From an uncultured Bacilli bacterium (GTDB lineage Bacteria; Bacillota_I; Bacilli_A; RF39; UBA660), in contig CALVIX010000003.1 of assembly GCA_944331895.1 (NCBI GenBank), forward strand, positions 74,953-138,952: DNA of 64,000 nt. The letters run 5' to 3'. Position numbers and translations under genes: made by a program. This document shows, one piece after another, positions 606-50,521 of the stretch; within the stretch, counting starts at the first letter, position 1, and every line of letters starts with the position of its first letter. Below the pieces are notes generated by a model. That model was not told where the DNA came from. It made no database searches and saw only the letters and a list, made by a program, of their open reading frames with translations.

Positions 606-684
606 CTCACACACCCCTATTCTATATAATATAGTATATCAAAACTCATATTGAAAAACAATAAAAAAGGATGATTTCTCACCC

Positions 685-1710: not shown

Positions 1711-1797
1711 AAATCAATCTCTCCCTATTCTTAACATCTTAATTTTATCAAAATTTTTTTCATAAAGCAACATGTTTTTGACACTAATTGACAAATT

Positions 1798-2364
1798 TTA
1801 CACTTGCGTTGCAGTAATTGTTACTTCTACATGATCTATTAAATCTTGATACACTTCTTCATTATAATTAGTTGGAAAATTTACGATCAATTGATAGTGA
1901 TTCGTCATCTCTTTTTCTTTTTCAAACCTCTGCTTTGGAGTTGAAAATTTAAAGAAATACATTCCGTCTTCATCCTGTATAATTTCTTTATTCTGAAAAT
2001 CATTGACCGTGGCATCATTCAGATAGATTTTATAATCGACAGGAATATTCGTCGTAGTTTCCAATTCTAATGTATATTCCAAATCAACTTCGCTGACATT
2101 ATCATCTTTAAAATTAGAAACATCTATATTGAAAATATAATCTTTTCCATCCGGTTTTACATCGAACATTTTTAATGTTTGCGATTCCGTCGTCGGATGA
2201 ATGATGTAAAATGCGATATCTCCGACAGCTGTTCCCGAACCATCTGTAAAAAATCTCGCAAATACAACCCTCATTCCGAGTAATAATAATAGAATACCAA
2301 CGATCGCAATCGTAATCTTTTGAAATTGCCAGAATTTCTTTTTATCAATCATCTTTACCACCAT
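1798..2364 (-). CDS. Membrane-anchored or secreted protein, family B (paralogous to the N-domain of 20558-21487)
   Basis: 188-aa ORF with one N-terminal span followed by VVFARFFTDG. YIFNIDVSNFKDDNVSEVDLEYTLEL aligns with YNIVINLNSFKNNHLKSNSDIDYEVSL of the 309-aa ORF. An alternative start at 2352 (ATG overlapping the sipW stop) is possible. Confidence 0.5.
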   Translation of the reverse strand: MVVKMIDKKKFWQFQKITIAIVGILLLLLGMRVVFARFFTDGSGTAVGDIAFYIIHPTTESQTLKMFDVKPDGKDYIFNIDVSNFKDDNVSEVDLEYTLELETTTNIPVDYKIYLNDATVNDFQNKEIIQDEDGMYFFKFSTPKQRFEKEKEMTNHYQLIVNFPTNYNEEVYQDLIDHVEVTITATQV

Positions 2365-2920
2365 TTTTCATCTGAATACCAGAATAATAAATAGCAAAGT
2401 CGGCATTGTCTGGCAGATGCTTCTTCCCAGTATACGCAAAAGCAATAGAGAACAAAAACAAAGTCACGCAGATCATAGCGATAATTTTAGGTGTCGATAG
2501 CACCTTAAACCATACGCCAAACTGAGGCAATATCTTGACCACTTTTCCCACTACTTGTTCTTTTAAAATAACTTTATCTTGTTCCATATTTGCATCACCT
2601 TTAGTGACATATCCCGTTTGGGTTACCTGCTGTACACGGTGCGTAATGAGAGTATCTCCATCCTTGTAAGTAATAATATCTCCTACTTTAATATTTTCAT
2701 CTGATAATTTTACGATAATTAAATCATTCGTCGTAATCGCAGGAGCCATACTGTTACTTCCAATCTGAAAAAACGTATAGGAAAAGAAATTAACATACTT
2801 ATTGGAAAGTACTTTTATACTTACGAAAGAGTATAGACAAAGAACAAGCACGATTCCTAATATGACAAATAGGATATTGCTGATTACTTTCATAGATCTA
2901 TACACGATCTCACTCTTCAT
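2345..2920 (-). CDS. sipW: Signal peptidase I, SipW (ER/archaeal) type, catalytic residues present
   Basis: 191 aa with N- and C-terminal membrane spans. Ser box IGSNSMAPAI, GDIITY, His box ITHRV, TKGDANMEQD; this matches the SGSMEP / THR / GDNN layout of B. subtilis SipW. Confidence 0.8.
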   Translation of the reverse strand: MKSEIVYRSMKVISNILFVILGIVLVLCLYSFVSIKVLSNKYVNFFSYTFFQIGSNSMAPAITTNDLIIVKLSDENIKVGDIITYKDGDTLITHRVQQVTQTGYVTKGDANMEQDKVILKEQVVGKVVKILPQFGVWFKVLSTPKIIAMICVTLFLFSIAFAYTGKKHLPDNADFAIYYSGIQMKNGGKDD

Positions 2921-2939
2921 GCGATCACCACCTTTGATT

Positions 2940-3515
2940 TTATTCTTTTATATACTGTTCAAACTGAATCGTTATTGGAATCAAAAACTGACTATCAGGA
3001 TCTTGTCCTAGCTCAGAATCTGTCTCGTTATATTGATCATCCCACACCCAATGGAACGTCACCTGAATCGTATCTGTTTTACCAGCTTCGATATCATCTA
3101 ATGTTACAACGCGACGATATACGCCATTTTCTTCTATTAACTGTGTACCGTTGACACCAACAACTTCATCTACTGTAATCTGATCATATTCTTGCTTTTC
3201 TAAGTCCAACTTCAATTGATATTGAAACGAAACCTCCGTATCCTTAGGATCGATTTCGATCAAAAACTTTCCTGTTACACCAGGCGCGAACTTCGAAACA
3301 GGATTTCCATTTCGATCGACATAGGAAATCTCATCGATGTAAAATGTTCGATCTGTCTGATTTAAATCGCTATCATTTACGGTAATATGCCATTTCGCAA
3401 CTGTGAGTTCACTTTCGTCATCGATACTAGTTTCAAATAATCCAAAGCTTTTCGTTATTTGAAATATCGTAAGACAACAAAAGAGAATACTTATTACTAT
3501 GAGTATTTTCTTCAT
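2940..3515 (-). CDS. Secreted TasA/camelysin-like protein, family C
   Basis: 191 aa with signal-like N-terminus ending ITKSFGLFETS. VAKWHITVNDSDL, APGVTGKFLIEIDPKDTEVSFQYQL and VTFHWVWDD are all mirrored in the plus-strand ORF 15144-15734. Confidence 0.55.
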   Translation of the reverse strand: MKKILIVISILFCCLTIFQITKSFGLFETSIDDESELTVAKWHITVNDSDLNQTDRTFYIDEISYVDRNGNPVSKFAPGVTGKFLIEIDPKDTEVSFQYQLKLDLEKQEYDQITVDEVVGVNGTQLIEENGVYRRVVTLDDIEAGKTDTIQVTFHWVWDDQYNETDSELGQDPDSQFLIPITIQFEQYIKE

Positions 3516-4042
3516 TCATCCTCGTCTTCGATTGGCGCCTTAATCTCGATAATCACACGGTATAGTTCATATAAGAACAATAGTAAAGTTGGTAAAATAA
3601 CTAAAATGAGAAATCCAAAACGAGATTCTAATATAGATAGGATTTGTCCAAGTTCTGGATAAACCTTCGCAGATTCCGTTCTTCCAATTAAACTAGAACT
3701 TGAAATGTCATGATTATCGTTAATCGTAAATGTACGTTCATCTTCATCTACTGGCAACACCTCTGTTACAGTTCCATAATGAATACTTGGTATTCCATTC
3801 GTTACCTCGTAGAAGAAAATCTCGTCGTTTTCTTTTACTTTTTCCATTTCTCCTTGGCGAAATAATACTAAATCACCATCGTTATATTTATCAGAATCAT
3901 CATCGATGATAATAAAACTATAGCCTAACATCTCTGTTACTTTATAATCATTGTAGCAAAGTAAACATGATGTGACTAAAATAATCACTGCCAAATAACA
4001 TACTCCGATGACTCCTAATATTCCTTTTAAAACTAATTTCAT
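3512..4042 (-). CDS. SipW-like pseudo-peptidase (nucleophile Ser replaced)
   Basis: 176 aa with the same N-TM / beta core / C-TM layout as SipW. NDGDLVLF aligns with NTGSLILV of SipW, which puts IIIDDDSDKY where GSMxP should be (Ser to Asp). Acidic C-terminal tail. Confidence 0.5.
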   Translation of the reverse strand: MKLVLKGILGVIGVCYLAVIILVTSCLLCYNDYKVTEMLGYSFIIIDDDSDKYNDGDLVLFRQGEMEKVKENDEIFFYEVTNGIPSIHYGTVTEVLPVDEDERTFTINDNHDISSSSLIGRTESAKVYPELGQILSILESRFGFLILVILPTLLLFLYELYRVIIEIKAPIEDEDE

Positions 4043-4086
4043 ATCCCTACTCCTTCATGTTTCTATTTTATCACAAAAACAATTCA

Positions 4087-5634
4087 TTACCTAGCGATTT
4101 CTTTTTTTTCCATGATTTTCTGAACTTTCTTTACTCTTATTAAATCATCGATAGATATATGAAGTTTTTGTAGTTGATAATATATAATTATCTTTTTTAA
4201 ATCTGTCTTACACTGTTTTAACTGTTCTGTTGCTAACATATCTTCTTTTAGATCAACGCCTAGTAATCGATAGTTAGAAATCAACATAGAAGCGACATTT
4301 CCTTCTTCCGATATCGTCAAATTATTGATCATTGTATTGTTCGGATTTAAAACGAATTGATAAAGATTTTGATGTTCTTCATCTACTTTTTCATATGTCG
4401 TTTGTGGATCTTTTTCAAAACACATATCAGCTAAGAATGCATAATATTGACTCACGAGCAATAATGATTTAAAAATCGTTGAATTGTCTTTCATGTGCTC
4501 TTTGACAGTATAGTGAAACATCACCTGATCCACTTCGTGATATTGTGCTTCTATCTCGCTGATCACCTGATTGATTTCTGGTGTGATTTTGTCTACTTTT
4601 GTCTTAGAAAAAGTCCCCCGAGATTTTTTATTTAATTTTGTTAACTTCTTTTCTAATTCTTTGATCTTCTTAAAATGTTTTTGCAATACATTACGGTCTA
4701 AATCTTCTTTGTATAACGATCTGATTTTGGCAATCAACGCTTCATATTTCTGATAATTTTCGTATTCTTCTAACGAGTGTAATAATTTGAAAGCAACATT
4801 TTCTAACTCGGATTCTTTTCCTTCAAAAGAGTTTCCAAAATACGTATTTATTAAATTTTTAATTTTTTCTTCCGTATAATCATCTACATTATAAGCTCCT
4901 GACACAAAACAATATAATAGATGTTCCTTCTTCCCAAGCTTTTCCATCTCTAACTTATGACATAGATAACTATAGTCATCGATCAAACTTTTTTCTCCAT
5001 GTTGAAAACGCGATAACATCTCTGCATTCGTACGAGTGATGTATTGTTCGAATTTCTTCTTGTGTTTTAAATATAGATGGCGAAGATTCAATTCAATTTC
5101 TAAAATTAAATATGGATCTTTCCAATAGAGTTCTTCAAATACTTTTTCTAACGTTCCACTATTGATATAGTTTTGATAGGAAAAGAAGGATTCCATATAT
5201 TGGTGTGAGAACTTCGTATAGTTAAAATCGGATGCCTGCAAAGATATCCCTACTTTGTTAAATACAGATATCACTCTTTTTAAAACGTGATTATTATCGT
5301 TTAAACGATTCATCTTATAGCGTGAAAGTTGATACATATTTTTATCTAGTCTTAATTTTTCATACGCCGTTGCTAAATTATTCGTATAGGATAATGCTTT
5401 AGAAAGTTGCATCAGCGCATCATGGTATTCTTGAAAAGACTGTGGCTGTAAAGATAAATATGGTTTTTCACGGTTCACAAGTTCCGTATAAATCATATTT
5501 ACCTTTTCTTGATAAGTTGCAATTTCACGCTCTATTTCATTTAAAAACTTCGTTTGGTTTTTTAAATTGTTCGTCGGTAAACTTTGAAATACTTCACGGC
5601 TTAATGCGATTTCTTTTTCAATTCTTTCCTTCAT
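4087..5634 (-). CDS. Cytoplasmic K/E/L-rich helical protein, unknown function
   Basis: 515-aa ORF with no hydrophobic span and no motif I recognise. Its start is overlapped by the small ORF 5618-5746. Confidence 0.6.
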   Translation of the reverse strand: MKERIEKEIALSREVFQSLPTNNLKNQTKFLNEIEREIATYQEKVNMIYTELVNREKPYLSLQPQSFQEYHDALMQLSKALSYTNNLATAYEKLRLDKNMYQLSRYKMNRLNDNNHVLKRVISVFNKVGISLQASDFNYTKFSHQYMESFFSYQNYINSGTLEKVFEELYWKDPYLILEIELNLRHLYLKHKKKFEQYITRTNAEMLSRFQHGEKSLIDDYSYLCHKLEMEKLGKKEHLLYCFVSGAYNVDDYTEEKIKNLINTYFGNSFEGKESELENVAFKLLHSLEEYENYQKYEALIAKIRSLYKEDLDRNVLQKHFKKIKELEKKLTKLNKKSRGTFSKTKVDKITPEINQVISEIEAQYHEVDQVMFHYTVKEHMKDNSTIFKSLLLVSQYYAFLADMCFEKDPQTTYEKVDEEHQNLYQFVLNPNNTMINNLTISEEGNVASMLISNYRLLGVDLKEDMLATEQLKQCKTDLKKIIIYYQLQKLHISIDDLIRVKKVQKIMEKKEIAR

Positions 5635-5746
5635 TTTCTACACTCTTTTCCACTTCTTTTTTCTTCGTTTCTAATTCTTTTAAATAATCATTTATCACTT
5701 GATAACACTCGATCAATTCATCTGTATTTACTGTTTCTAAATCCAT
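5618..5746 (-). CDS. Small acidic coiled-coil ORF (42 aa), not in the ORF track
   Basis: AGGAGG (5753-5758) sits 6 nt upstream of ATG at 5746. Translation: MDLETVNTDELIECYQVINDYLKELETKKKEVEKSVENEGKN. The RBS abuts the stop codon of the giant ORF (5757-5759), and the ORF's stop overlaps the 515-aa ORF start by 17 nt, suggesting translational coupling. Confidence 0.4.
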   Translation of the reverse strand: MDLETVNTDELIECYQVINDYLKELETKKKEVEKSVENEGKN

Positions 5747-5756
5747 ATGGTTCCTC

Positions 5757-8700
5757 CTATTTTATTATAACATATTCTGTACAATCTCCTATCAAAGTAT
5801 CTCCGTCGTATAATCGAAATACAAACCGATATGTACCACTTTTTAAATTTGATTTTAAATATAAATTCTTATCGCTTTCCGCAGCCGGCATTTCTGAAAG
5901 TAAATATTCATTTTCATTTTTCTGCTGCATATTGTTTGAAACATAATCTAACAAGTTGACTTGAGAGTATGTCGTATCGTAAATCTCATCGTAATTTCTT
6001 CTAAACAAGCTAACGCGTATATTTGGATTAGATAAATTAGAAGAGTACTTTACGTGGAAAATAAGGGCGTTATTTCCTAGTGTCGTATACCCTGTTTCTT
6101 TATCTACGATCGTCTGTCTCTCATCTAAAGAAACGTCTAATCCATAACGACTATTGATAATCTCAAATGGAATTGTAATCTGATCCGATGAATTCGTTCC
6201 AAAATAGATCCCATCTGGCGAACCAAACGATTCGATTTTCATCGTGTAATTTCCACTAGCCAAGTTAACGTTATTCGTATGAATTTTAATACGACTCAAT
6301 ACATTGGCAACCTTATCTGCAAGTGGAATACGAATACTTCCATCCATACGTGGATAATAAGTAACTCCATCCAACTCGTAAGTAAGTCCAAGTAAGCTAC
6401 TATTGTTCAATTGATTTTGATTCGCATCAAAGATCGTAATGTAAACACCAAGACGCTTATCTAGATATGTCGTATCTACAACAGTTGCTCCACTTGCCGT
6501 CGATTGAGTGAAGTTCGTCGTCAATGTCAAATCGCTATCTTCACCGATATAAATTGGATTTTTACTTAAAGTTCCTTCGACATCGATCACTGCGTCTCGA
6601 TTATCATATAAGTTATAAGTTAGGTTCGCATGTTGAATTCCGAGAACGCTAATCAAAGTTTGATCTTGCGCGTTTCGAAGTTCCATGAGTAAACTCTTTC
6701 CAATCTGATCCCCTTCGATCGTGGTATCTCCAAAATCGACGATAAAGATAAATTCTTCTTCGATAATTCCCATCTCTTCGTCATAGTAAAGTTCCATATT
6801 TTTTTGTTCGTTATAATTATTGTCTGCACTCGTCGATCCCATGGCAATAAAATCACTTAAATAATAAGAACTTTCTCCATATAACGCATGTTCTGCTGTT
6901 GCATTTCGATAATCTTCTTCATCGATGACATGATAATAGTATGTTGGCATCGTCGCAAAGTCGATCATCGTTATCTTTGTTCCAACTGGCAATACGTAAC
7001 TAGATACAAGTGCATGCTGATATCCCGTTTGATAATATGGTTTATCTGTTTCCATATAAAGAGAATAATAAGCACTCAAGGATGATTTCGTTGTAATGTT
7101 CGTCTGTGTCGATGCGAATAAATCGTATTTTTCCCCTGTCGTCATCGCACCTTCATATTCGTTATTTGCATATAATGCAGAATTGATCGTTACGTTGATA
7201 TTGACACGAGTTACCTCGTTATTTAATTCATCGATCGGTGTTATCTCCAAAAGGGAAATGACAACGGTACCAATTTCTCTTGCCTGTGTTAAATTTTTAG
7301 AATGGTACAAATAGAAGATGAAACTAGGTACAGCACTTGAATTCTCCGATTGATAATTGGTTGTCCCAACGACGGAAGATCCTTCTTCGGTTCTAAAGTT
7401 TGTAGATCCTTTCGTAACGAAACCTGTATTAGATGCCTCCATCGAAAGCCCCATGATGTCATCTGCTTTTCCATCTCGATTGACTCTTTCAATCGTATCT
7501 GGATCGACAAGTTCAAACCCTTCTTCGAGATTCTGATAGTTAAATCCTAAAATCTCAAACTGCGTATTCGCTCCACCAGATGTTACTAAAGGTAACTCGT
7601 ACGTACCTAACGTCGCATACTTAGATGCCGTTAAAGTAAGTTCGTACGTTTCAACGGTCTCTCCAATTACCCACATATAATAACTAGCATCGCTCGGTGT
7701 AGGTTCAATATACTTCACTTCTACTGTTCCTTCGACATCTTCATTTTCATAGTTACTATAAAAACCATCTTTCGTAATATCGTGATTTGTATTGTGTAAT
7801 CCTAAGACGTAGCTTCCTGATGTGAATGCATAGAACTCTCCAGAAGCAACAGTATCCCCTGCATCGTATTTTTGATGGTAAAATGCAGTTAATACGCGAT
7901 CGTTACGATCTAATTGATACATTCCAAAGAACGTCATTCCACTCACTTCTCCATAGCTCGTGACGGCTTCGTTTGTCGCGATATTCATGTTTTTGCCTTC
8001 TAACATATAAACGCGATTATCGACATTTTTCGTGACACTTCCGCCTTCAGTAATCGTAACACTTGCCTCAGTCTCATTCTCTCCATCGATCTTTAAACTA
8101 TTAAATTTTTGTAATAAGTTCGTTCCGTTATCTAAAAATAGAGTACTATTATTTGCTAACTTTAATTCCTTGACACGACTAATACTAAATTTTGTCGTCG
8201 AAAATTCATTCGTACGGTCTGTCGTTCCTTCTAATTTAATTGCAGAATTTTTAAGAGTTACAATATCTGCTCTTTGAATAGAAATATTTTCCTGGTACTG
8301 ATCAAAAGTACCATAATTTGAAATATCGATATAACTATAACCTTCTGTACTAGATGCGTTTCCAGAACCAAAGATAGAACCTTTGATATAAAATTGATCA
8401 TATCCATCTCCATCGATTGTAATTTGGATTCCTTCTGTTACACTGATAAAAGAATAGTCGTAGTTTGGATCTCCTTCGGCATTGGCTTCTCCTCCTCCAA
8501 AGACAGTTCCATCGATCATGATATCGCTCTTCGTTAAATTTTCATTCGATCCGATATTTAATTCTACCGTTCCATAAAGTACGGCTGTATTGGCTCCCCC
8601 ATATACATTTCCATGGATCGCAGCTCCAGCTATATTGACGTGACTGACAGAACGATTGACTTCCTTCGTTCCCGTATTTGCGGCGTTTCCTCCACCAAAA

Positions 8701-11700
8701 ACATGTTGATCCACTATCGTATTTTGATCTACGTTGAGTGTCGTCGAACCATGGACGATTGCACTTTGTCCATTGCCACCAGCGTAGATACTACTTTGGA
8801 TATGAGAATTTGAAATGTTTACCTCGGTATCTCCCGATACAATTCCAAGATTTCCTCCACCAAACAAATCTCCAGCGATCGATGAATTTTTAAAAACTAC
8901 TTTCGTATCATAATTAACGGCAGCTTGATTTCCTCCACCGAAGAATTCTCCGTTCATCGTAATAGAGTCTACTTGAACATTGGTCTGATCTGTCGGTGCC
9001 ATATTTCCGCCACCATATAAATTGGTATAACTTCCTCCATTTAACGTAACATTAGCGTCTTTGGTAACACCACCTTGATTATTTCCACCATATACATTTC
9101 CGACAGTCAAATTAGATGGATTTTCAGCTTTCACATTTGAAGTTTCTACTGTTCCTGCTTGATTACTTCCACCAAATGCATAAGTAGCTTGTCCGGATTT
9201 CAAATCGACGTTCGTCGTCGTAACACCAGCTTGGTTTCCACCACCATAAATACTTCCGACGGTAGATCCAGATAGAGTCAGATTCGATGTCGTCGTAGAA
9301 GTTTTATTTCCTCCGCCATAGGCGTTCGTAATCGTTCCTCCGCTTAATAATATATTCGTCGTCGCAGTAATTCCACCTTGGTTATTTCCACCATATACGT
9401 TCGTTAAATTACCACCCGTAATACGAATATCTGACTGTGGAACATTTCCTAGGATGTTAGAACCACCATATAATTCTCCAATCGTCGCATTTTCTACCAT
9501 AATCAAGGTAGATTGTGACATGTTCGCTTGTTCTCCGCCACCGTAGACGGTATCTACTGTTCCATTTTTGATCGTAAGTGTACTTGTATTGCTATCGGTT
9601 AGTTTTCCACCACCATACATCGTACCAACGGTACCACCAGTCATTGTAATATTCGTCGTAGTCGTTTTCCCACCGACATTATTTCCACCATATATGTTGG
9701 TTGCCGATCCTCCTGAAATAGTAATCTGGGCATTTTCAACATCGCCACTTTGATTACTTCCACCAAATAAATTCGTAACCTGACTACCATTTTGAAAAAC
9801 ATTTGTCTCCGATACTAAAGTGTTATTTCCACCACCGTAGGCATTTGTAATCGTTCCTCCGTTTAAGGTAACAACAACACTTCCGTTTGGCTCTCCTTTA
9901 GCGTCATTCCCGCCAAATAGATTGGTGATCACTCCTCCTGTCGTCGTAACAGAGACATCTCCTGCTACATATGGTGTAATCGTCTGATTTCCCTTTCCAC
10001 CACCAAATACTTGATTGATAGTTCCTGCATTGACGATAACACTCGTAGAATATGCACTTTGTGTCGTCGTTTTCTGTCCCGAATTGACTACACCAAAGGC
10101 ACTTCCTCCGTAAACTGAACCTGTTACGTTTAAATTTCTCGTACGAGCTGTACCTACAGTCATATCGATATTTTGAGTTACGTAAGTATCTTCTCCAAGT
10201 CCACCACCATAGGCGTCTTTTAAAGATCCATTTACAAGAGTAACTGCACTACTTCCATAAACTGTTCCTTCCTGATTACTTCCACCATAGATAGAATCTA
10301 ATACGGATCCTCCATCCATCGTAATCTCGATCGTGGATGTAACTCTTCCACTTCTTCCAGAACCACTGTGGTTTCCACTTCCAAAAACGGATCCATTTAC
10401 AGTCCCACCGACTAATTGGATGGATGTTGTAGAACTATTAGAAGCACTATAACCAACTGTACCATAGTTCCCACTACCATATACGTTCTTCTTTACGACT
10501 GCTTGATCGGCAATCACAATGTTAGAATGATTTACCGAACCGATGGTTGCATATCTTGAATTTCCGTTTCCACTTCCAAAGACAGAACCAGCTTCAGATC
10601 CCCATATCGTAGAACCATTATTGATATATGTATCATTTCCTATGGTTGCGGTTCCACCAATATAAACATAAGAGTCCCCCGTAAGCGTTCCATCACTACT
10701 ACTACCATCATATCCATTACTTCCCCCAAAGATACTATAATTTACAGTACCTCCAGTAACTTGCAAAATACGATTTCCATATGTAGTTGAAGTTCCTGCT
10801 CCACCAGTGATCGTATCCGCTTCTCCACCTGTCATATAAATATAGGTATCGTTCGTAGACCCCTTCGAACTTGCTGTCAACGGACCCCCGATAAGATTTG
10901 CGATATACCCGCCTTCTATTTTAGCAAGACGTGGTGCATAATGTGTCCCACCTTGACGACCACCTACATAAATACCAGAAGTATGATCGATATCGTGCGT
11001 TCCAAAACGTCCGCTTTTTACAATCGTATTCAGTGCAGGTGTCAGATCGTTATTCGACGAGTAAATTCGTCCTCCCCAACTACCAGATGCACAAAAGTAA
11101 ACAAGTAAGTTATCGTTATTGACAGTAACCCTATCATAATCATTTCCATATACTCCATACGTTTCTGTATATAACTGCGTCCCACTCGTTCCAGTCGATG
11201 ATCCCATCGTTAAAGATACAGAATTATAATCACCAGATTCTATTACAAGTTCATATCGTTCCGGATTGGAAGATGACCCAAAGGTTCCTCCACCCCAAAA
11301 ACTGTCGGAGTTTCTCCCACCTAAAATAGATGTAAAGTTAACATAATTTCCATTTTGTTTAATATTTCTTCCAAATTTTACGTTAAAATAATTACCATAA
11401 AACGTAGCGCTCGCACTATTTCTACTGGAAGGATCTACTTCCCTATGAGAAGTGGTTGTCGAAATAGTCATATTTTCTATTCTAAGATCCGAATAAGCTG
11501 TGACGCTTAAATTGTTAACATTCCATGTTGGATTATAATCAATACTATTATGTATACCAGTCAGCGTAAAAGGTTTCGTGCTTGATTCACTCCATCCCCT
11601 CGACATATTTCCATTCATAACTAAAATGTTCGTATCGCGCGTCGTCAGGTAGTAATAATCTGCGTCTGGATCGAGCTTTTCTTCTGTCCCGTCTGCTTTA

Positions 11701-12863
11701 TAGAATTGAATTAGTTCATATACGTTACAACCATTTCGATTTCCACAATTACCGCTTTCGATCTCTCCTGCCTCACTATAATATCCAGTAATTGATTGTC
11801 CATAACCTACATGGCTTTGTCTATAATATCCCGACATATTACTCTCTGCATTAAATAGATCACTTTCTTCAGTACCAATAATTGTCGGTTGCAAATTTGC
11901 CTCGATGAAACCTCTTCCACTTCGTTCATAATAGGTTGTACCCATTTCATACTCATCATTTTCGTCCTGTAAAAAATAAACGTTACAAGTGTTCGTTTTC
12001 GTCCCTGTTTCTAAAAAGCCAAAAGATGGTGCCGGGCATTGATAAGAACTATGATAATTGGCACTATCATCGTAGCAATCTGTACATGATCCATATTCGA
12101 CATCCGTTCCACCAAAAAGACTTTTCGTCGCTGTCGTCGTAATCGTACTTCCTTTATAATATCCAGCTACTTCTGGATATTCATAAATGTAATTGATCGT
12201 ACTAATTTGATTCATTCCCTTTGATTTCAACTGCGACTGTGCACTATCGATCGTTACTCCACTATTTACATACGCAACCGTTGCATTTGTCCAAGAAGCA
12301 TACATGTGAATTTCAATTTCACCTGCATTTCCAACTGGAACACTTACGTACCTTTTATAATAAGTATCATCATACGAAATCTCGGCACCTTGATAGTTGG
12401 TCATCCATCCATTGAATGCTAGATCGTTGGGGTGATCAGCAAATGGATTATCGATCAACTCTATCTCGATGGCACCGTTTTTCTTCGGATAATATTTATA
12501 GTAGACAAAAGTGTTTTGCCTTTCTGTAAGAGAGACATATCCCGTATGTTGTCCATCGTAGCTAGTACCATGATAGACAACTGTCGTCTTTACTAAATTA
12601 TTATCACCATACAAGTTTTTGTTTGCGAGTGTCGGTAAAGCTCCATCACTACTATATGTATAATTCTGACCCAAATAATAATAATAATCACTATCGGAAT
12701 CATCTATGTAAACTGTATTGCCAACAATCCCACGTGAAACTGTTGCTTTTGGATTTGCTGTTTTCCACGCTCCGTAGGAAAAGGCAATCGTCGTAATAGG
12801 GATAATACACGCTAAAAGAATCAAGAAATATACTTGACGATTCTTCTTGAACTTTTTTCTCAT
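5757..12863 (-). CDS. Giant secreted beta-solenoid protein (2368 aa) with a SipW-cognate-like N-terminus
   Basis: N-terminus MRKKFKKNRQ plus one hydrophobic span, then AFSYGAWKTANPKATV. Aa ~40-490 is a Tyr/Cys-containing region. Aa ~490-1510 is Gly/Asn/Thr-rich with at least 24 [YF]GG[GSN]N units at ~25-aa spacing. Aa ~1520-2368 is beta-rich. No LPXTG or other C-terminal anchor. Confidence 0.75.
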   Translation of the reverse strand: MRKKFKKNRQVYFLILLACIIPITTIAFSYGAWKTANPKATVSRGIVGNTVYIDDSDSDYYYYLGQNYTYSSDGALPTLANKNLYGDNNLVKTTVVYHGTSYDGQHTGYVSLTERQNTFVYYKYYPKKNGAIEIELIDNPFADHPNDLAFNGWMTNYQGAEISYDDTYYKRYVSVPVGNAGEIEIHMYASWTNATVAYVNSGVTIDSAQSQLKSKGMNQISTINYIYEYPEVAGYYKGSTITTTATKSLFGGTDVEYGSCTDCYDDSANYHSSYQCPAPSFGFLETGTKTNTCNVYFLQDENDEYEMGTTYYERSGRGFIEANLQPTIIGTEESDLFNAESNMSGYYRQSHVGYGQSITGYYSEAGEIESGNCGNRNGCNVYELIQFYKADGTEEKLDPDADYYYLTTRDTNILVMNGNMSRGWSESSTKPFTLTGIHNSIDYNPTWNVNNLSVTAYSDLRIENMTISTTTSHREVDPSSRNSASATFYGNYFNVKFGRNIKQNGNYVNFTSILGGRNSDSFWGGGTFGSSSNPERYELVIESGDYNSVSLTMGSSTGTSGTQLYTETYGVYGNDYDRVTVNNDNLLVYFCASGSWGGRIYSSNNDLTPALNTIVKSGRFGTHDIDHTSGIYVGGRQGGTHYAPRLAKIEGGYIANLIGGPLTASSKGSTNDTYIYMTGGEADTITGGAGTSTTYGNRILQVTGGTVNYSIFGGSNGYDGSSSDGTLTGDSYVYIGGTATIGNDTYINNGSTIWGSEAGSVFGSGNGNSRYATIGSVNHSNIVIADQAVVKKNVYGSGNYGTVGYSASNSSTTSIQLVGGTVNGSVFGSGNHSGSGRSGRVTSTIEITMDGGSVLDSIYGGSNQEGTVYGSSAVTLVNGSLKDAYGGGLGEDTYVTQNIDMTVGTARTRNLNVTGSVYGGSAFGVVNSGQKTTTQSAYSTSVIVNAGTINQVFGGGKGNQTITPYVAGDVSVTTTGGVITNLFGGNDAKGEPNGSVVVTLNGGTITNAYGGGNNTLVSETNVFQNGSQVTNLFGGSNQSGDVENAQITISGGSATNIYGGNNVGGKTTTTNITMTGGTVGTMYGGGKLTDSNTSTLTIKNGTVDTVYGGGEQANMSQSTLIMVENATIGELYGGSNILGNVPQSDIRITGGNLTNVYGGNNQGGITATTNILLSGGTITNAYGGGNKTSTTTSNLTLSGSTVGSIYGGGNQAGVTTTNVDLKSGQATYAFGGSNQAGTVETSNVKAENPSNLTVGNVYGGNNQGGVTKDANVTLNGGSYTNLYGGGNMAPTDQTNVQVDSITMNGEFFGGGNQAAVNYDTKVVFKNSSIAGDLFGGGNLGIVSGDTEVNISNSHIQSSIYAGGNGQSAIVHGSTTLNVDQNTIVDQHVFGGGNAANTGTKEVNRSVSHVNIAGAAIHGNVYGGANTAVLYGTVELNIGSNENLTKSDIMIDGTVFGGGEANAEGDPNYDYSFISVTEGIQITIDGDGYDQFYIKGSIFGSGNASSTEGYSYIDISNYGTFDQYQENISIQRADIVTLKNSAIKLEGTTDRTNEFSTTKFSISRVKELKLANNSTLFLDNGTNLLQKFNSLKIDGENETEASVTITEGGSVTKNVDNRVYMLEGKNMNIATNEAVTSYGEVSGMTFFGMYQLDRNDRVLTAFYHQKYDAGDTVASGEFYAFTSGSYVLGLHNTNHDITKDGFYSNYENEDVEGTVEVKYIEPTPSDASYYMWVIGETVETYELTLTASKYATLGTYELPLVTSGGANTQFEILGFNYQNLEEGFELVDPDTIERVNRDGKADDIMGLSMEASNTGFVTKGSTNFRTEEGSSVVGTTNYQSENSSAVPSFIFYLYHSKNLTQAREIGTVVISLLEITPIDELNNEVTRVNINVTINSALYANNEYEGAMTTGEKYDLFASTQTNITTKSSLSAYYSLYMETDKPYYQTGYQHALVSSYVLPVGTKITMIDFATMPTYYYHVIDEEDYRNATAEHALYGESSYYLSDFIAMGSTSADNNYNEQKNMELYYDEEMGIIEEEFIFIVDFGDTTIEGDQIGKSLLMELRNAQDQTLISVLGIQHANLTYNLYDNRDAVIDVEGTLSKNPIYIGEDSDLTLTTNFTQSTASGATVVDTTYLDKRLGVYITIFDANQNQLNNSSLLGLTYELDGVTYYPRMDGSIRIPLADKVANVLSRIKIHTNNVNLASGNYTMKIESFGSPDGIYFGTNSSDQITIPFEIINSRYGLDVSLDERQTIVDKETGYTTLGNNALIFHVKYSSNLSNPNIRVSLFRRNYDEIYDTTYSQVNLLDYVSNNMQQKNENEYLLSEMPAAESDKNLYLKSNLKSGTYRFVFRLYDGDTLIGDCTEYVIIK
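8469..10301 (-). repeat. Coding tandem repeats (~75 nt / ~25 aa) of the beta-solenoid core
   Basis: Repeated xVYGGGNxxGxVxxTNVTLxGGTVxN pattern (IYGGSN, AYGGGN, LFGGSN, IYGGNN, MYGGGK, VYGGGE ...). Degenerate at the DNA level. Confidence 0.6.
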
Positions 12864-12880
12864 ATGATCCCTCCTTTTCT

Positions 12881-13870
12881 CTACGATGGATTTGTCGTAA
12901 ATTCTAATTTAAAACTAATATCTCCATAAGAAGCATTATCTTCGCAATCTACATCCTGACCTTCTAACCACATGTAAATTCTAACTTTTGTAATCGAAGG
13001 CTCTAAATCAAATATTTTAAAATTGTTCATACCACTTTTAGGAGTCGAACTATCCACATTGACTCTTCGAAATAACGATGGATAGGTAGCACTATTGGCA
13101 TTTTGAATTAAAACGTTATTCGCGCTTCCAATCTCTGCAATTACCCCATCGTATGGTAATACCGCACCACCTACTTGCGAAGTTGTAATTCCATATACAC
13201 TCTGTGCATTTTGAACGCCATACTGTGTATGAGTATCATAATTCGGTTCCCAAATAAATGCATTTCTCGCACCAGTTAATCCTTGTGCTAAAGAAGCATT
13301 ATCTGCAGAAGTTCCTTCATTTAGAAAAGCAATTCTCGTTGCATTTTCGATTCCTTTACTCTCTTCTCCTAGATATGTTACAGATGAATTATTAGAAACA
13401 TAAAGTTCTTTCGGAGCAGTCGTACGAAAAAATAAATCAAATGCGATAAAATTTCCTTCGCTATCTTCTCCAAAACTTTCCGTTTCTTCACTTTTTTCCG
13501 TCACCAATACAAAATCTGTCGAATCCGTATTCGTTGCATCTCCACGGAACAATTCCAATTTCCCTGCTCCATCCACTGTACCTCCTGTAGAAACCGGATA
13601 AAATTGAGCTGGTATCTGATTGACACTTCTTCCATAGTTGTCTCTTGCATTCATAATATCTTGCACTGTCACAACCTGTTTCCAGTTTACCGCATCCGTA
13701 CTCACTTCGAGTCCTCCATCAGCCTGTACATGTACATCCAAAGCATCAATACTTACAACTCGATTGCTCGTAAACCAAGCATAAGATGTTGCGACGAATA
13801 GCAAGAAACTAAATAACAGTGGCAACAATAACATTTTTCTTCTCTTTTCCCTCTTTTTACTTCTTTCCAT
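12881..13870 (-). CDS. Secreted TasA-like protein, family A (paralogue of 685-1710)
   Basis: The track ORF starts at 13879, but GGAGGAG (13881-13887) is spaced correctly for the ATG at 13870 (MERSKKREKRRK...). ATSYAWFTSNRVV follows the membrane span. C-terminal ITKVRIYMWLEGQDVDCEDNASYGDISFKLEF. Confidence 0.6.
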   Translation of the reverse strand: MERSKKREKRRKMLLLPLLFSFLLFVATSYAWFTSNRVVSIDALDVHVQADGGLEVSTDAVNWKQVVTVQDIMNARDNYGRSVNQIPAQFYPVSTGGTVDGAGKLELFRGDATNTDSTDFVLVTEKSEETESFGEDSEGNFIAFDLFFRTTAPKELYVSNNSSVTYLGEESKGIENATRIAFLNEGTSADNASLAQGLTGARNAFIWEPNYDTHTQYGVQNAQSVYGITTSQVGGAVLPYDGVIAEIGSANNVLIQNANSATYPSLFRRVNVDSSTPKSGMNNFKIFDLEPSITKVRIYMWLEGQDVDCEDNASYGDISFKLEFTTNPS

Positions 13871-14567
13871 TGTCGACATGCTCCTCCATAATTTCCATAT
13901 TTAATTTGATTTCTCCACCGATAATCGCATCGACACAATCCGGATCATCCCCCTCTAAATAGATGACGATCGTATATTTATCGATATCATTCGGTTTAAA
14001 ATTCTTACGTTCTTTCAAAACAGCGACATCATCAGAATAAAATGGCGTCGTATTATATTCAATCTCGTTTGTCAAACTATTCCTCTTCGCGTAGATCGTC
14101 TGTTTGCCATTTTCATAAACCATAATTCTGATCGCTTCATCTACATTTTTTATGACATCTAATACATTGATCTGATACCAATAATGAATCGTACGCTCTC
14201 CTTCGTTTCCTACGTAAAACGTATAAGCAATATAATTATCCCCATTATGCGCTCCATCTTTTTCATCATTTAAATTATCCGGTAACCAATTGACAGAGAT
14301 ATTATCCATAAATTCTATTTCCTCTGCATATAATTTATTTCGCGTTACCTTGTTGTCTTTGCTTTCGTAAAGTACGATTCCACTATCTAAAGCAAAGTTC
14401 GGATCTAACGTCACAGTGAAGTTTCCACCTTGATATACGACCATCAATACAAAAAAAAGAGCAAGCAAAAAAAGGAAAAGAAAGATTGCTATTCTCTTCG
14501 CATACTTTAATCGTTTCTTGCGCCCTTGTAAATTTTTTGCAGTGACCTTTACCGTACTTACTGCCAT
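13857..14567 (-). CDS. Membrane-anchored or secreted protein sharing the family A C-terminal motif
   Basis: 236 aa with basic n-region RKKRLKYAKR and one span. C-terminus DKYTIVIYLEGDDPDCVDAIIGGEIKLNMEI parallels YMWxEGQDVDCExNASxGxISFxLxF. Confidence 0.55.
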   Translation of the reverse strand: MAVSTVKVTAKNLQGRKKRLKYAKRIAIFLFLFLLALFFVLMVVYQGGNFTVTLDPNFALDSGIVLYESKDNKVTRNKLYAEEIEFMDNISVNWLPDNLNDEKDGAHNGDNYIAYTFYVGNEGERTIHYWYQINVLDVIKNVDEAIRIMVYENGKQTIYAKRNSLTNEIEYNTTPFYSDDVAVLKERKNFKPNDIDKYTIVIYLEGDDPDCVDAIIGGEIKLNMEIMEEHVDNGKK

Positions 14568-14595
14568 ACCACCACGATCCTTTATTATTACTTTA

Positions 14596-14625
14596 ATTTT
14601 ATCATATCTTGTCGCATTTTGTAAA
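14596..14625 (-). promoter_or_regulatory. Sigma-A-like promoter for the 236-aa ORF and downstream cassette
   Basis: On the minus strand: TTTACA, 18 nt, TGaTAAAAT (extended -10). Lies immediately downstream of the terminator at 14661-14689. Confidence 0.4.
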
Positions 14626-14660
14626 CCTAGAAAACACTTTTAAAACAAGTAAGATACGTT

Positions 14661-14689
14661 CAAAAAAAAGAAAGATCTAGTCTTTCTTT
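14661..14689 (-). terminator. Rho-independent terminator of the 95-aa ORF
   Basis: Minus strand AAAGAAAGA-ctaga-TCTTTCTTT followed by TTTTT. The stop codon lies in the loop. Confidence 0.55.
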
Positions 14690-14964
14690 CTCTGTAAGCC
14701 AAAATCAAAATTCGGATCGTCCTTTAATACGTGTATCGACATCGTCTTAAATAGATCATCTAAATCCAGTGTATCATCACTGACGTTATCTTTTTTCTCT
14801 ACCTGTGGAGTCGTTTCATCCAATTCGACAATTTCAATTTCTTCCTCTGGAATTTCCCTTCTATTTTGAGTCTTCCCCTTCTTATTCTGTCTCATCAAAA
14901 GTGCAAAGATCGCAATGAGAGCAATAACAAGTATCAATCCAGCAATCAACATAATCCACAACAT
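14677..14964 (-). CDS. Small single-span membrane protein with acidic tail (95 aa)
   Basis: MLWIMLIAGLILVIALIAIFALLM then K/R, then a D/E-rich tail. RBS GGAGGGG. Has its own promoter and terminator. Confidence 0.55.
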   Translation of the reverse strand: MLWIMLIAGLILVIALIAIFALLMRQNKKGKTQNRREIPEEEIEIVELDETTPQVEKKDNVSDDTLDLDDLFKTMSIHVLKDDPNFDFGLQRKKD

Positions 14965-14990
14965 TACGACCCCTCCTATCTTACTCTAAT

Positions 14991-15019
14991 ATTTTACCAT
15001 ATCTTTTCTATTACCTCAA
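14991..15019 (-). promoter_or_regulatory. Sigma-A-like promoter of the 95-aa ORF
   Basis: Minus strand TTGAGG, 17 nt, TGgTAAAAT. Confidence 0.45.
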
Positions 15020-15143
15020 TCTATTTTTCTGAAATTGTTCTATTTATCACTTTACACCTATTGACATACGTCAAACCTTTTGTTTACATATCCTACTCTG
15101 TTTCATGATATAATGATCTCAAGATGGAAAGGTGTGATCTCAA

Positions 15144-15734
15144 TTGATTAAAGTGAAAAAATGGAAATTATTGATCGCTATTTGTGCTTTGATCTTTTGC
15201 GTCACACAAATACAACAAACTTATGCGAAATATCTAGATACGAAAGAAGGCGATACAGATTTTACCATTGCTCAATGGAAAATCCTCGTCAACGATCAAG
15301 ATATTACAGAAGCTGCAACAATGTCTTCTCTAGTTAACCCAGTATATCTCGAAAACGAGCATGTAAAAGACGGAGTCATCGCTCCTGGACAAAATGGATA
15401 TTTTGATCTGACGATCGATTCAAGCAAGACGGAAGTATCCTTTTCCTATGCGATTCAAATCGCGACATCCGATCAAAGTTCTGTCTCTGATCTTGCAATT
15501 ACTGGATATCAAGTGAACGATAGTGGTCTCGTATCTGTCGATCAAGCAGTCAATACAATTCAAAATAATATATATTACAATGATCCGACCAAAGAAAATA
15601 AAATTCGCGTATACTTCCAGTGGAAAGATGGTGTAGGAGAAACGATGGATAACGCTGCCGATACCAACGCATCGTTAAGTGGAGAGAGCGCTAAACTGAA
15701 AGTTAATATTACGTTTACACAAATTGCAAATTAA
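15144..15734 (+). CDS. Secreted TasA/camelysin-like protein, family C (paralogue of 2940-3515); one of only two plus-strand genes called
   Basis: 196 aa with a TTG start in the track. Signal-like N-terminus ending IQQTYAKYLDT. IAQWKILVNDQDI, APGQNGYFDLTIDSSKTEVSFSYAI, VYFQWKDG. Confidence 0.55.
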   Translation: MIKVKKWKLLIAICALIFCVTQIQQTYAKYLDTKEGDTDFTIAQWKILVNDQDITEAATMSSLVNPVYLENEHVKDGVIAPGQNGYFDLTIDSSKTEVSFSYAIQIATSDQSSVSDLAITGYQVNDSGLVSVDQAVNTIQNNIYYNDPTKENKIRVYFQWKDGVGETMDNAADTNASLSGESAKLKVNITFTQIAN

Positions 15735-15762
15735 AACCACAGTTAATTCTGTGGTCTTTTTT
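15733..15762. terminator. Bidirectional terminator between convergent ORFs
   Basis: ACCACAG-ttaatt-CTGTGGT is followed by CTTTTTT on plus. The reverse orientation is followed by TTTTAATTT. It overlaps the last codons of the 204-aa ORF. Confidence 0.6.
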
Positions 15763-16345
15763 GACTTGCTGTCAATTTAACGATAATTTCAATTTGTTTT
15801 TCTCCTGGATAGTCTTGCTTATAACTATAGCTCTTTTTTCCCCAATAAGTATCTAATTCATCATTTCCGGACTCATACGGCCAATCTAACCCTACTCGAA
15901 AGCTCGCTTTCGCACCGATATCAATTTCCGATTGATCGACTCCCAGAGTTAATTTAAAAGGATAGTTATTCTGTAACATTTCAATTAACTCATCACTTGT
16001 ATAATCCGCATCCGTATATACTTCATCCATAATCTTGATCGATTTTACTTCGTATGTAATATAAGCCAACATCTCTCCAGAATTGCTAATTTCGATAAAT
16101 TCCTCGAAAGATTCCATTCCCGGATAGATCGAATCAATCTCGAAAGTAACATCTTCCTCTAGATCATTTCCATCTTGTTCAAATGTTACCTTCCATGATT
16201 TTACCCCAGTAGTGATACTGTTGGATACTTTATTGCTATAGATAAACCATGCAAAAGAATTTGCCATAAAAGCAAAAATTAGAAAAAATAATGTACTTCT
16301 ACGTATTCTTCGTTTCGTCTTTTTCATGAGTGTTTTCTTCTTCAT
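15743..16345 (-). CDS. Secreted TasA/camelysin-like protein with SipW-cognate-type signal
   Basis: MKKKTLMKKTKRRIRR, one span, then ANSFAWFIYSNKV. IYPGMESFEEFIEISNSGEMLAYITYEV resembles the TasA LKPGD...NNGSL segment. Start uncertain: GTG 16357, ATG 16345 or ATG 16327. Confidence 0.55.
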   Translation of the reverse strand: MKKKTLMKKTKRRIRRSTLFFLIFAFMANSFAWFIYSNKVSNSITTGVKSWKVTFEQDGNDLEEDVTFEIDSIYPGMESFEEFIEISNSGEMLAYITYEVKSIKIMDEVYTDADYTSDELIEMLQNNYPFKLTLGVDQSEIDIGAKASFRVGLDWPYESGNDELDTYWGKKSYSYKQDYPGEKQIEIIVKLTASQKRPQN

Positions 16346-16907
16346 CGGACAACTCACTTTCTTTCTCTTTGATATAATCGAGTATTTCTAAGAAAATTAA
16401 AATTGCAATCGGAACAAACACAAGAAAATATAATCCGTAGGAATTATTTAAAATATGACTTAACCAACTTAATACTTGCGGTCTATAAACGACAACTCCA
16501 TACATTTGATCTTCTCGAATTTCCGGATCAGGTGTATTATTTGCTGTTCCTTGCGTCGTATAATAATAAGTTCCATTCTCTTCTCTTACTTTCTTTACTC
16601 TATGCGTAATGACCCTATCTTTATAATCTCCTGTTTTGCCAAGATAAGTTAAATCATCTCCCACCTGAATTTCATCTGGTTTTTTTTCTTTGATGATAAT
16701 CACATCGTAAATATCGTATTCTGGCATCATACTACCTGTTACAACTGTAAACATGCGATAACTACCAATACTGACTTGATTGTTGAATAATCTTTGAATT
16801 CCAATAACTAATACGATCAAAATCACAAAAATCCAAATCATCACTTTTATAAACCCAAACAGAAACTTAAGAAAAGGATTATTCAGTATTTTTTTCATCA
16901 TCTTCAT
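16299..16907 (-). CDS. sipW: Signal peptidase I, SipW type (Ser and His boxes present; GDNN box reads GTANN)
   Basis: 202 aa with VVTGSMMPEYDIYDVIIIK, GDDLTY, ITHRV, TTQGTANNTPD, a C-terminal span and an acidic tail. Its start overlaps the stop of the upstream 379-aa ORF. Confidence 0.7.
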   Translation of the reverse strand: MKMMKKILNNPFLKFLFGFIKVMIWIFVILIVLVIGIQRLFNNQVSIGSYRMFTVVTGSMMPEYDIYDVIIIKEKKPDEIQVGDDLTYLGKTGDYKDRVITHRVKKVREENGTYYYTTQGTANNTPDPEIREDQMYGVVVYRPQVLSWLSHILNNSYGLYFLVFVPIAILIFLEILDYIKEKESELSDEEENTHEKDETKNT

Positions 16908-18018: not shown

Positions 18019-18031
18019 ACTCTCACCTACA

Positions 18032-19555: not shown

Positions 19556-19565
19556 TCATTCACCT

Positions 19566-20546: not shown

Positions 20547-20557
20547 AATACCAACTC

Positions 20558-21487: not shown

Positions 21488-21977
21488 AACTTAACGACTT
21501 TCTATATTTTCGTACCAGTATAATAAAAGCGATCATAATTGGTAACATCACAATTAGAAAATATCCTAATTGACTTGTCAAAACCCGATACGGATACCCT
21601 AACATCGGAATTTGTCGCACATCTTTTATATTTCCTATCAAATATTCGCTCGACAAAAATAAGCCATCTTGAATCACGTAAGTATACTCTTTCTCGTTTG
21701 TCTTCATGACGTCTTCTACTTTTGTTACGTCGATCTTTCTTTTTCCGTTTTTCGTATTGTAATAGATAATTTCATCCCCTTTTTGGATCGATGATATATC
21801 CTTCTTACTCACGATTAAATTACCTGCTTTCAACTCTTCCGAATTTTCAGTTATCCCAACGATCATCGTATCCCCAATGACGCTATCCGAAAATTGATTA
21901 CAGGTAAACAAGAAAAAAGTTGCTACTAGTACTAATACTGTGTAACATATGATTCCAATATACTTTGCGATTCTCAT
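21474..21977 (-). CDS. SipW-like pseudo-peptidase (Ser and His boxes both lost)
   Basis: 167 aa with N-TM and C-TM as in SipW. KAGNLIVSKK aligns with NTGSLILVK, which puts ITENSEEL where GSMEPEF should be. VTKVEDV replaces THR. Confidence 0.5.
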   Translation of the reverse strand: MRIAKYIGIICYTVLVLVATFFLFTCNQFSDSVIGDTMIVGITENSEELKAGNLIVSKKDISSIQKGDEIIYYNTKNGKRKIDVTKVEDVMKTNEKEYTYVIQDGLFLSSEYLIGNIKDVRQIPMLGYPYRVLTSQLGYFLIVMLPIMIAFIILVRKYRKSLSYAKN

Positions 21978-50488: not shown

Positions 50489-50521
50489 CGCAATCACTCC
50501 GTACTAGTCTATCATATTTCA

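Follow-up and report, generated by a model that had tools for sequence, protein, structure and literature searches.

The giant gene and its family

We analysed a 64,000-nucleotide stretch of DNA from an uncultured Bacilli bacterium (GenBank assembly GCA_944331895.1, contig CALVIX010000003.1), referred to here as the window, and in particular a giant open reading frame (ORF), g12, together with the conserved gene locus in which it lies. g12 occupies positions 5757..12863, is intact, and encodes 2368 amino acids followed by a stop codon, exactly as an earlier sequence-only reading of the window had placed it, with a ribosome-binding site, AAGGAGG, 6 nt before the ATG. Positions below are window coordinates and refer to the minus strand unless the plus strand is named. 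The predicted protein, which we call the giant, begins with MRKKFKKNRQ, passes into a single hydrophobic span and then reads AFSYGAWKTANPKATV, also as that reading described it. No second hydrophobic span was found, and none at the C-terminus. Cut at the site predicted below, the mature protein would comprise about 2337 residues, with a mass of 251 kDa and an isoelectric point of 4.5.

Scans with the Pfam and NCBIfam libraries recognized no domain in the giant, and a sequence search against PDB chains gave no match. We detected 417 homologues of 2300-3300 residues, none of which carries a Pfam domain and one of which is entered simply as "beta strand repeat-containing protein [Bacilli bacterium]". 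In a set of species-representative genomes, 266 stretches encode a relative of the giant, and the protein is conserved over its full length in more than 266 species. Identity to distant homologues is 37-63% across the giant, with the exception of residues 31-44. The hosts of these relatives are all uncultured gut metagenome-assembled genomes labelled Bacilli, Tenericutes, Mollicutes, Mycoplasmatota or Erysipelotrichaceae, labels that we take to denote RF39-type lineages, and they include a closed chromosome of 1,256,474 bp (OZ006994.1), Clostridium sp. CAG:451 and Firmicutes bacterium CAG:884. Some locus-bearing records are titled Vescimonas coprocola, Bacteroidaceae, Muribaculaceae, Sphaerochaetaceae or Acidaminococcus fermentans (L009, L010, L011, L018, L019, L051 and others); these are probably mislabelled or contaminated bins. 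In the literature we found no description of the locus or of the giant protein family.

The 18-gene locus

The giant is one of 18 genes of a locus at window 685..21977, mostly on the minus strand, with g08 on the plus strand, which was defined by matching the ORFs of 82 fetched loci to the proteins of the window. Its gene content is conserved in about 80 species, where three modules are permuted yet remain contiguous. Module A consists of g01 (a degenerate SipW), g02, g03, g04, g05 (DUF2357), g06 (SipW), g07 and g08; module B of g09, g10, g11 (a protein of what we call family A), the giant and g13; and module C of g14 (a second degenerate SipW), g15, g16 (SipW), g17 and g18 (family A). Gene retention was counted in the 33 loci that have at least 9 kb on either side of the giant. 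Family A is present in all 33, one or more catalytic SipW-like genes in 32 and the AAA+ gene in 31.

The upstream neighbour of the giant is a family A gene of the g11 type in 47 loci. Its usual downstream neighbour is g13 (4087..5634), a protein of 515 amino acids with no membrane span or known domain. A different order, g10-g18-g13-(SipW-like ORF)-giant, is seen in a sub-clade of 12 loci (L032, L033, L035, L037, L038, L044, L048, L051, L065, L069, L070 and L072). The SipW-like ORF that stands directly upstream of the giant in these loci has 374-422 amino acids, about twice the usual length, which suggests a fusion.

Folded parts of the giant

The structure of the giant was modelled with AlphaFold2 in two segments, residues 1-1100 and 1400-2368, from an alignment of 35 full-length homologues. 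For the first segment the predicted local distance difference test (pLDDT) was 88.7 and the predicted template modelling score (pTM) 0.82, with confident all-beta structure from residue 45 and short periodic strands from about residues 430-490. The second segment, with a pLDDT of 85.4 and a pTM of 0.58, is nearly all beta. Folds were compared by Foldseek with the PDB for both segments and with the viral structure database BFVD for residues 1-1100. Three folded parts can be told apart behind the signal peptide and tail: a head, a repeat core and an array of immunoglobulin (Ig)-like domains.

The head is an all-beta, Tyr-rich region at residues 45-480 (11424..12731), modelled with pLDDT mostly of 80-96. 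It is specific to this family, as a HMMER search with residues 44-480 found only 140 clusters among 1.84 billion representative proteins. Matched proteins that are full-length are usually giants of 2300-3100 amino acids, and many of the other matches are shorter proteins or fragments. No significant fold match to the head was obtained in the PDB or BFVD, and matches of residues 1-1100 to the norovirus P-domain and herpesvirus gB were rejected as noise (E 0.2-0.9). Residues 241-340 are the most variable folded segment of the giant. The six cysteines that the sequence-only reading counted in the Tyr-rich N-terminal region are present, at residues 260, 263, 276, 293, 373 and 379; further cysteines in the protein are at 19, 591 and 2361. 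The first four head cysteines form a C-x-x-C...C...C cluster and the last two a C-x5-C loop (window approximately 11725-12086). In both alignments examined Cys 293, 373 and 379 are invariant; for 260 this holds in one alignment, and likewise for 276. These residues could form disulfides or a metal site.

The head is followed by a predicted beta-solenoid core at residues ~481-1530 (8274..11423), of about 1000 amino acids, for which we estimate 35-40 rungs. Regular rungs of 24-26 residues, with the pattern [YF]GG[GSN]N..V..T.V.L.GG.ITN, span residues ~950-1460, and the autocorrelation of the core peaks at 24-26 and 49-50 residues. The sequence-only reading had described at least 24 [YF]GG[GSN]N units here. 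The repeat core is real, but the strict motif occurs 15 times, against 0.1 expected from shuffled sequences (about 150-fold), and relaxed patterns occur 22-26 times. The number of repeats differs among orthologues. In Pfam the core gave only a sub-threshold Hexapep match, and the library contains no model for the rung motif [YF]GG[GSN]N. The best PDB matches to residues 1-1100 are the beta-helical proteins SepA, EspC, Hbp and EtpA, at non-significant E values of 0.17-0.5. What supports the beta-solenoid reading is therefore the periodicity of the rungs together with a confident model of periodic all-beta structure, and not a significant fold match.

The C-terminal part of the giant, residues ~1531-2368 (5760..8273), is predicted from the AlphaFold2 model and Foldseek to be an array of Ig-like beta-sandwich domains. 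There were 367 PDB matches at E<=1e-3. The best was to the Ig-like domains of PrgB (E 1e-15, probability 1.00), and the next were to macroglobulin-type domains (alpha-2-macroglobulin, complement), integrin ectodomains and a mastigoneme. This agrees with the stacked beta-sandwiches that had been proposed for the C-terminal ~850 amino acids, for which the model reached the pLDDT of 85.4 given above. No other part of the giant is as well conserved as this array, and the protein ends in a conserved ...GTY..VF.LYDG...IG....Y.IIK with invariant residues up to the last two positions. We considered and rejected two further ideas about this end of the protein. A role in toxin delivery like that of CdiA or Rhs proteins does not fit a C-terminus made of conserved Ig-like domains with no polymorphic tip. 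A subunit-like "pilin domain" that would accept a donor strand as in FimH was not seen at the sequence level, where hhalign found no similarity.

SipW-type peptidases and a probable cleavage cassette

Four paralogues of the SipW/archaeal-type signal peptidase I are encoded in the locus. g16 (2345..2920; TIGR02228, 90.2 bits; motifs SMAP, THRV and GDAN..D) and g06 (16299..16907; TIGR02228, 77.6 bits) both retain the catalytic motifs SMxP, THR and GDAN. g14 (3512..4042) and g01 (21474..21977) are degenerate and lack SMxP and [TS]HR, and neither motif is present in any of 70 g14 orthologues or 20 g01 orthologues. Both keep two membrane spans, and we regard them as putative conserved pseudo-peptidases.

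In the TasA system, SipW removes signal peptides from both TasA and TapA, and residues 28-38 of TasA form the donor strand (PMC9674648). The three residues T-W-A precede residue 28, the first mature residue of TasA in structure 8AUR, with which the TasA sequence that we used agreed exactly. The corresponding region of the giant, residues 1-32 (12768..12863), which we read as a Sec signal peptide of the SipW/TasA class, has a Lys/Arg-rich start, a hydrophobic span at residues 11-29 within a modelled helix of residues 2-30, and then S-Y-G, with a predicted cut before A32. We examined 159 distinct orthologue N-termini, with conservation scored in bits per position, and a small-aromatic-small cassette, [TS]-[YF]-[GSA], closes the hydrophobic region in 149 of them at 2.8-2.9 bits per position. 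The forms include TYG (49 N-termini), TYS (20), TFS (14) and SFA (11), among others. This arrangement agrees with the -3/-1 rule for type I signal peptidases.

Of the eight further exported proteins in the locus, seven carry a like cassette; the exception is g10, which has Y-x-G-G-x-F-T-V-T-L-D at this place. Hydrophobic region and cassette together are 22 residues long in the giant, one more than the 21 of family A. Compared by hhalign, the N-terminus of the giant aligns with those of the locus families at probabilities of 76-94%. With family A the value is 94%, and that alignment stops exactly at the cassette T-Y-A. The residues that follow the cassette are [RK]Y in g02, WF in g07, KY in g08, LFE in g15, [RK]YE in g17 and WFTAN in family A. 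The curated NCBIfam model for SipW-dependent signal peptides, TIGR04088, found no match in N-terminal fragments of the giant, four orthologues and five locus proteins, and the argument from the cassette rests for this reason on the conservation analysis of the orthologues.

Taken together, the shared cassette and the strict synteny make processing by the peptidases of the locus the likeliest fate of the giant's N-terminus, and these sequence patterns mark the giant as a very probable substrate of the SipW-type signal peptidases that the locus encodes. The sequence-only reading, which had proposed a SipW substrate here, is well supported in this respect by the cassette in the 149 N-termini, by the like cassettes of the other exported proteins and by the retention of a catalytic SipW-like gene in all but one of the fully flanked loci. 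Size alone is no barrier for a substrate of Sec and signal peptidase.

The N-terminal tail

The same reading had gone further and proposed that the stretch behind the cleavage site, residues 33-44 (WKTANPKATVSR; 12732..12767), is a donor strand shared with the neighbouring family A proteins, by which the giant would dock onto a fibre. It had described a common pattern [FY]-[AG]-W-x-T-[AS]-N. This pattern is found in both family A proteins (YAWFTSN and YAWFTAN) but not in the giant, which reads Y-G-A-W-K-T-A-N with one residue extra, and what is common to all three is W-x-T-[AS]-N. This likeness is limited to the closest relatives of the giant (at least ~73% identity) and does not extend to all of these. 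The family A strand remains WFTANR in the same genomes, and the tail of the giant does not co-vary with it.

The tail is a disordered stretch of 12-14 residues, with pLDDT below 50 at residues 30-40. Positions +1 to +20 after the cassette of the giant carry 0.7-1.4 bits, compared with 2-3.9 bits at +1 to +17 in family A, and conservation within the protein is lowest at residues 31-44, which show 11% identity to distant homologues. Many orthologues insert approximately 300 amino acids between the signal peptide and the head, and the start of the head varies accordingly, from residues ~46-60 in some orthologues to ~290-400 in many others. The inserted domain opens with W-D-G...G-x-G-T-x-x-x-P-Y-x-I (for example in P0119 and P0371-P0409, and in loci L035 and L042), and a Pfam scan of three orthologues with the N-terminal extension found no match to it. 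Docking by a shared donor strand is not supported, given the weak conservation of the tail, the profile alignment that ends at the cassette and these insertions. The giant and its neighbours appear to share a signal-peptide cleavage motif, not a fibre-docking strand.

Family A and the small exported subunits

Family A is represented twice in the locus. g11 (12881..13879, 332 amino acids) has the highly conserved mature N-terminus WFTSNRVVSIDALDVHV, and g18 (685..1710, 341 amino acids) is the only locus protein that passes TIGR04088 (20.9 bits, cut-off 19). After the cassette T-Y-A, family A continues with W-F-T-A-N-R-x-V-[ST]-[IV]..D-V-x-V, which is near-invariant at an overall identity of about 40%, and a C-terminal motif, W-x-E-G-Q-D-x-D-C-E, is conserved as well. 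Family A is a strong candidate for a donor-strand fibre subunit on these conservation patterns.

The remaining small exported subunits include g17 (1798..2364, 188 amino acids) and g15 (2940..3515, 191 amino acids), which carry the cassette and flank the peptidase g16, as well as g08 (15144..15734, plus strand, 196 amino acids) and g07 (15743..16357, 204 amino acids). In pairwise hhalign comparisons of g02, g07, g08, g15 and g17, 7 of the 10 pairs gave probabilities of 92-100% (for example g15-g17 95.8% and g08-g15 100%) and the other 3 gave 34-78%. The N-terminal region of family A is related to g07.

These neighbours had been called TasA-like, a label that we regard as unproven. Neither the locus proteins nor 33 family A members scanned matched PF12389 (Peptidase_M73), the TasA/camelysin family. 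Against a TasA-family reference profile of 111 sequences, hhalign gave 52% for g07, the nearest locus member to TasA, 19% for family A, at most 11% for the others and 0.2% for the giant. The g07-TasA alignment takes in a YPGM/KPGD-type motif. Family A compared by hhalign with a single TasA sequence was not significant, and searches of the PDB with single family A sequences and with the profile returned no match, TasA included. A search of a 5.8-billion protein set with the family A profile gave 2752 matches, and the 120 listed had neither names nor a Pfam domain. The TasA-likeness of the neighbours is best treated as a lead, suggested by profile similarity.

Other conserved genes and features of the window

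Module A contributes four further conserved members, g05 (DUF2357, 379 amino acids), g04 (507), g03 (326) and g02 (309, exported, with cassette), which lie together at 16879..21487. In g04 a membrane span and a coiled-coil-like stretch are combined with an AAA+ domain that is weakly McrB-like (PDB 6hz4, E 0.003). In g05 no nuclease motif was seen by eye. The presence of g04 and g05 (window 16879-19555) in a surface-protein locus, in 31 of the 33 fully flanked loci, is an odd setting for McrBC-like proteins.

g10 (13857..14567, 236 amino acids) has a membrane span and a long basic N-terminal region, and its C-terminal 40 residues are related to the C-terminus of family A (hhalign 90.8%). It lacks the cassette and is a candidate for an uncleaved, membrane-anchored base of the structure. 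An extended -10 promoter-like site is found upstream of g10 at 14596-14625, and a terminator-like hairpin at 686..667 directly after g18. The arrangement of g10 through g18 is consistent with a single transcription unit; the promoter scan overall did no better than on shuffled sequences.

Outside the locus, the window holds a second giant ORF of 1880 amino acids (44855-50497) with an N-terminal prepilin-type N_methyl motif followed by Big_7, fn3, BNR, Y_Y_Y and Flg_new domains. It is predicted to encode a surface protein of very large size that resembles type IV pilins.

Proposed processing and placement of the giant

The explanation that we favour, and consider reasonably probable, is that the giant is a Sec-exported, rod-like surface protein of about 251 kDa that belongs to the core of a conserved surface-structure locus of 18 genes in uncultured, small-genome gut Bacilli. 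From the counts of rungs and domains we estimate the length of the rod at roughly 50 nm. By analogy with TasA, which is mature from residue 28, the peptidases of the locus would remove the signal peptide of the giant at the cassette, between S-Y-G and A. The mature protein would then be held on the cell non-covalently by other products of the locus, and its N-terminal tail would not serve as a docking element. Because the domain content varies at the N-terminal end, and the C-terminal Ig-like array is constant with an invariant end, we favour an orientation in which the N-terminal end is distal and the Ig-like array is proximal and meets conserved partners.

Several observations weigh against this explanation. 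TIGR04088 misses the giant and four orthologues, examined as N-terminal fragments of 60-67 amino acids, even at E<=10. The proposed right-handed beta-helix lacks a significant Foldseek match (best E 0.17 in the PDB; 7e-4 in BFVD, at low probability). hhalign finds no homology between any domain of the giant and the subunit families, and no anchor or docking partner of the giant was found. Finally, it is solely patterns of conservation that suggest which end is distal and which proximal.

A broader possibility, which we hold tentatively, is that the giant forms the shaft or tip of an undescribed surface appendage built by the whole locus. Family A and the five small subunit families would be exported by Sec and trimmed by the two dedicated SipW-type peptidases. 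The conserved, catalytically dead paralogues g14 and g01 would act as signal-peptide-binding assembly platforms or as retention factors, the membrane-bound McrB-like AAA+ protein and its DUF2357 partner would provide energy or control, and g10 would be the membrane base. If true, the locus would represent a machine for fibre assembly in monoderms of a new class, one that is specific to small-genome gut Bacilli.

A reasonable alternative, though clearly less likely in our view, is that the N-terminal span is an uncleaved signal-anchor and that the giant is a type II membrane spike, with the head at the membrane and the Ig-like chain pointing outward. The hydrophobic span of 19-22 residues is of membrane-crossing length and is preceded by a strongly basic segment, a disordered linker lies between helix and head, and g10 appears to be anchored in this way with no cassette. 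The failure of TIGR04088 to recognize the giant's N-terminus would also fit, as would the lack of any other anchor. As had been stated by the sequence-only reading, the giant has none: a regular-expression scan found no LPXTG, SLH, GW or YSIRK motif, and the domain libraries found no choline-binding or other wall-binding domain. However, a pure anchor would not require an aromatic residue at -2 flanked by small ones at -3 and -1, yet these are kept in the 149 cassette-bearing N-termini. In the cassette, and in its spacing from where the hydrophobic region begins, the giant matches its neighbours, which are presumably cleaved, and the locus has two dedicated catalytic peptidases.

Less probable still is the docking model, according to which the strand AWKTANPKATV, exposed by SipW cleavage, inserts, in donor-strand exchange, into a family A subunit, and the giant serves a family A fibre as a TapA-like nucleator or as an adhesin at its tip. 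TapA has been proposed to act in this manner, through the likeness of its N-terminus to the TasA donor strand (PMC9674648). The flexible tail of the giant has a plausible length for a donor strand, it shares W-x-T-[AS]-N with family A in the genome of the window and in several of its closest relatives, and the giant gene usually directly follows a family A gene, whose product has a mature N-terminus conserved strongly enough for a donor strand. Yet the likeness is confined to a shallow clade, and across the family the tail is the least conserved segment, shows no co-variation with the invariant family A stretch WFTANR and lies beyond the end of the profile alignment at the cassette. In many orthologues a domain of ~300 amino acids follows directly on the signal peptide instead, and sequence and profile matches do not support a TasA fold for family A. 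TapA-like docking as a family-wide mechanism is not supported by these comparisons, although it might operate within this shallow clade.

That the giant is cleaved and then released with no specific attachment, as a soluble or matrix-forming protein such as a biofilm scaffold, would accord with its lack of an anchor motif, with its lack of detectable homology to the subunit families and with the extracellular matrix that TasA-type systems build (PMC9674648), but is very improbable given that all 2368 residues are unusually evenly conserved (the 37-63% identity to distant homologues) and that the gene is strictly linked to 17 others even in genomes of about 1.26 Mb, which argues for a defined assembly with conserved partners.

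Comparison with known systems

A close parallel is the tapA-sipW-tasA system of Bacillus subtilis, in which TasA forms the fibres, TapA is the nucleator and SipW the peptidase. In both systems a gene for an ER/archaeal-type signal peptidase I lies beside those of its substrates, and the substrates carry a small-aromatic-small cassette, T-W-A before the A of mature TasA and T/S-Y/F-A/G/S here. The mature N-terminus of family A is also very conserved, as expected for a donor strand. In contrast to the three genes of that system, however, the present locus has 18. Four encode peptidase paralogues, of which two are degenerate, and nine encode exported proteins; also present are a DUF2357 protein and the membrane-bound AAA+ protein that is McrB-like. 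The giant has no TasA- or TapA-like domain, and its tail is unconserved; a TapA-like nucleator would be expected to carry a conserved mature N-terminal mimic of the donor strand, and in the giant family such a likeness is confined to the closest relatives.

The long, repeat-built rod predicted for the giant, a probable beta-solenoid, is reminiscent of the SPATE autotransporters SepA, EspC and Hbp and of the two-partner-secretion protein EtpA, to which the matches were non-significant. Unlike these, the giant has no autotransporter or two-partner-secretion domain in Pfam, and its export appears to require nothing beyond a Sec-type signal peptide at the N-terminus and a signal peptidase of type I. 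The chain of Ig-like beta-sandwiches predicted for the C-terminal ~840 amino acids resembles that of PrgB from Enterococcus faecalis, at 9% identity and with low TM-scores (structural-alignment scores), as these are multi-domain chains; the giant differs in having no LPXTG motif or wall-binding module. It also differs from adhesins with tandem Ig-like stalks in that its Ig-like array is no variable spacer and is conserved better than the rest of the protein.

Small exported subunits that go with a SipW-type peptidase or with donor-strand assembly are also known from the SipW-dependent matrix pilin BsaA of Clostridium perfringens and from the TasA-like bundling pili (AbpA) of archaea (PMC7395162, PMC11580942, PMC9245690). 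As summarized in their titles and abstracts, these systems come with no mention of a giant beta-solenoid partner, of degenerate peptidase paralogues or of an AAA+ component. The present system as a whole operates in the manner of an enlarged SipW/TasA export locus, with a giant similar to long adhesins of beta-helical and Ig-like build.

Significance for small-genome gut Bacilli

The locus of approximately 21 kb, with its 7-kb giant gene, takes up about 1.7% of a 1.26-Mb genome, and almost none of its 18 proteins has a known domain. For the giant, a family that has had no annotation, there is now a confident structural model. The locus also offers a concrete, testable case, a SipW-type peptidase system enlarged far beyond the three-gene TasA paradigm. 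The conservation of a protein of 2368 residues across hundreds of species indicates an important surface structure, one that probably governs how these bacteria attach to their hosts, to mucus or to other microbes.

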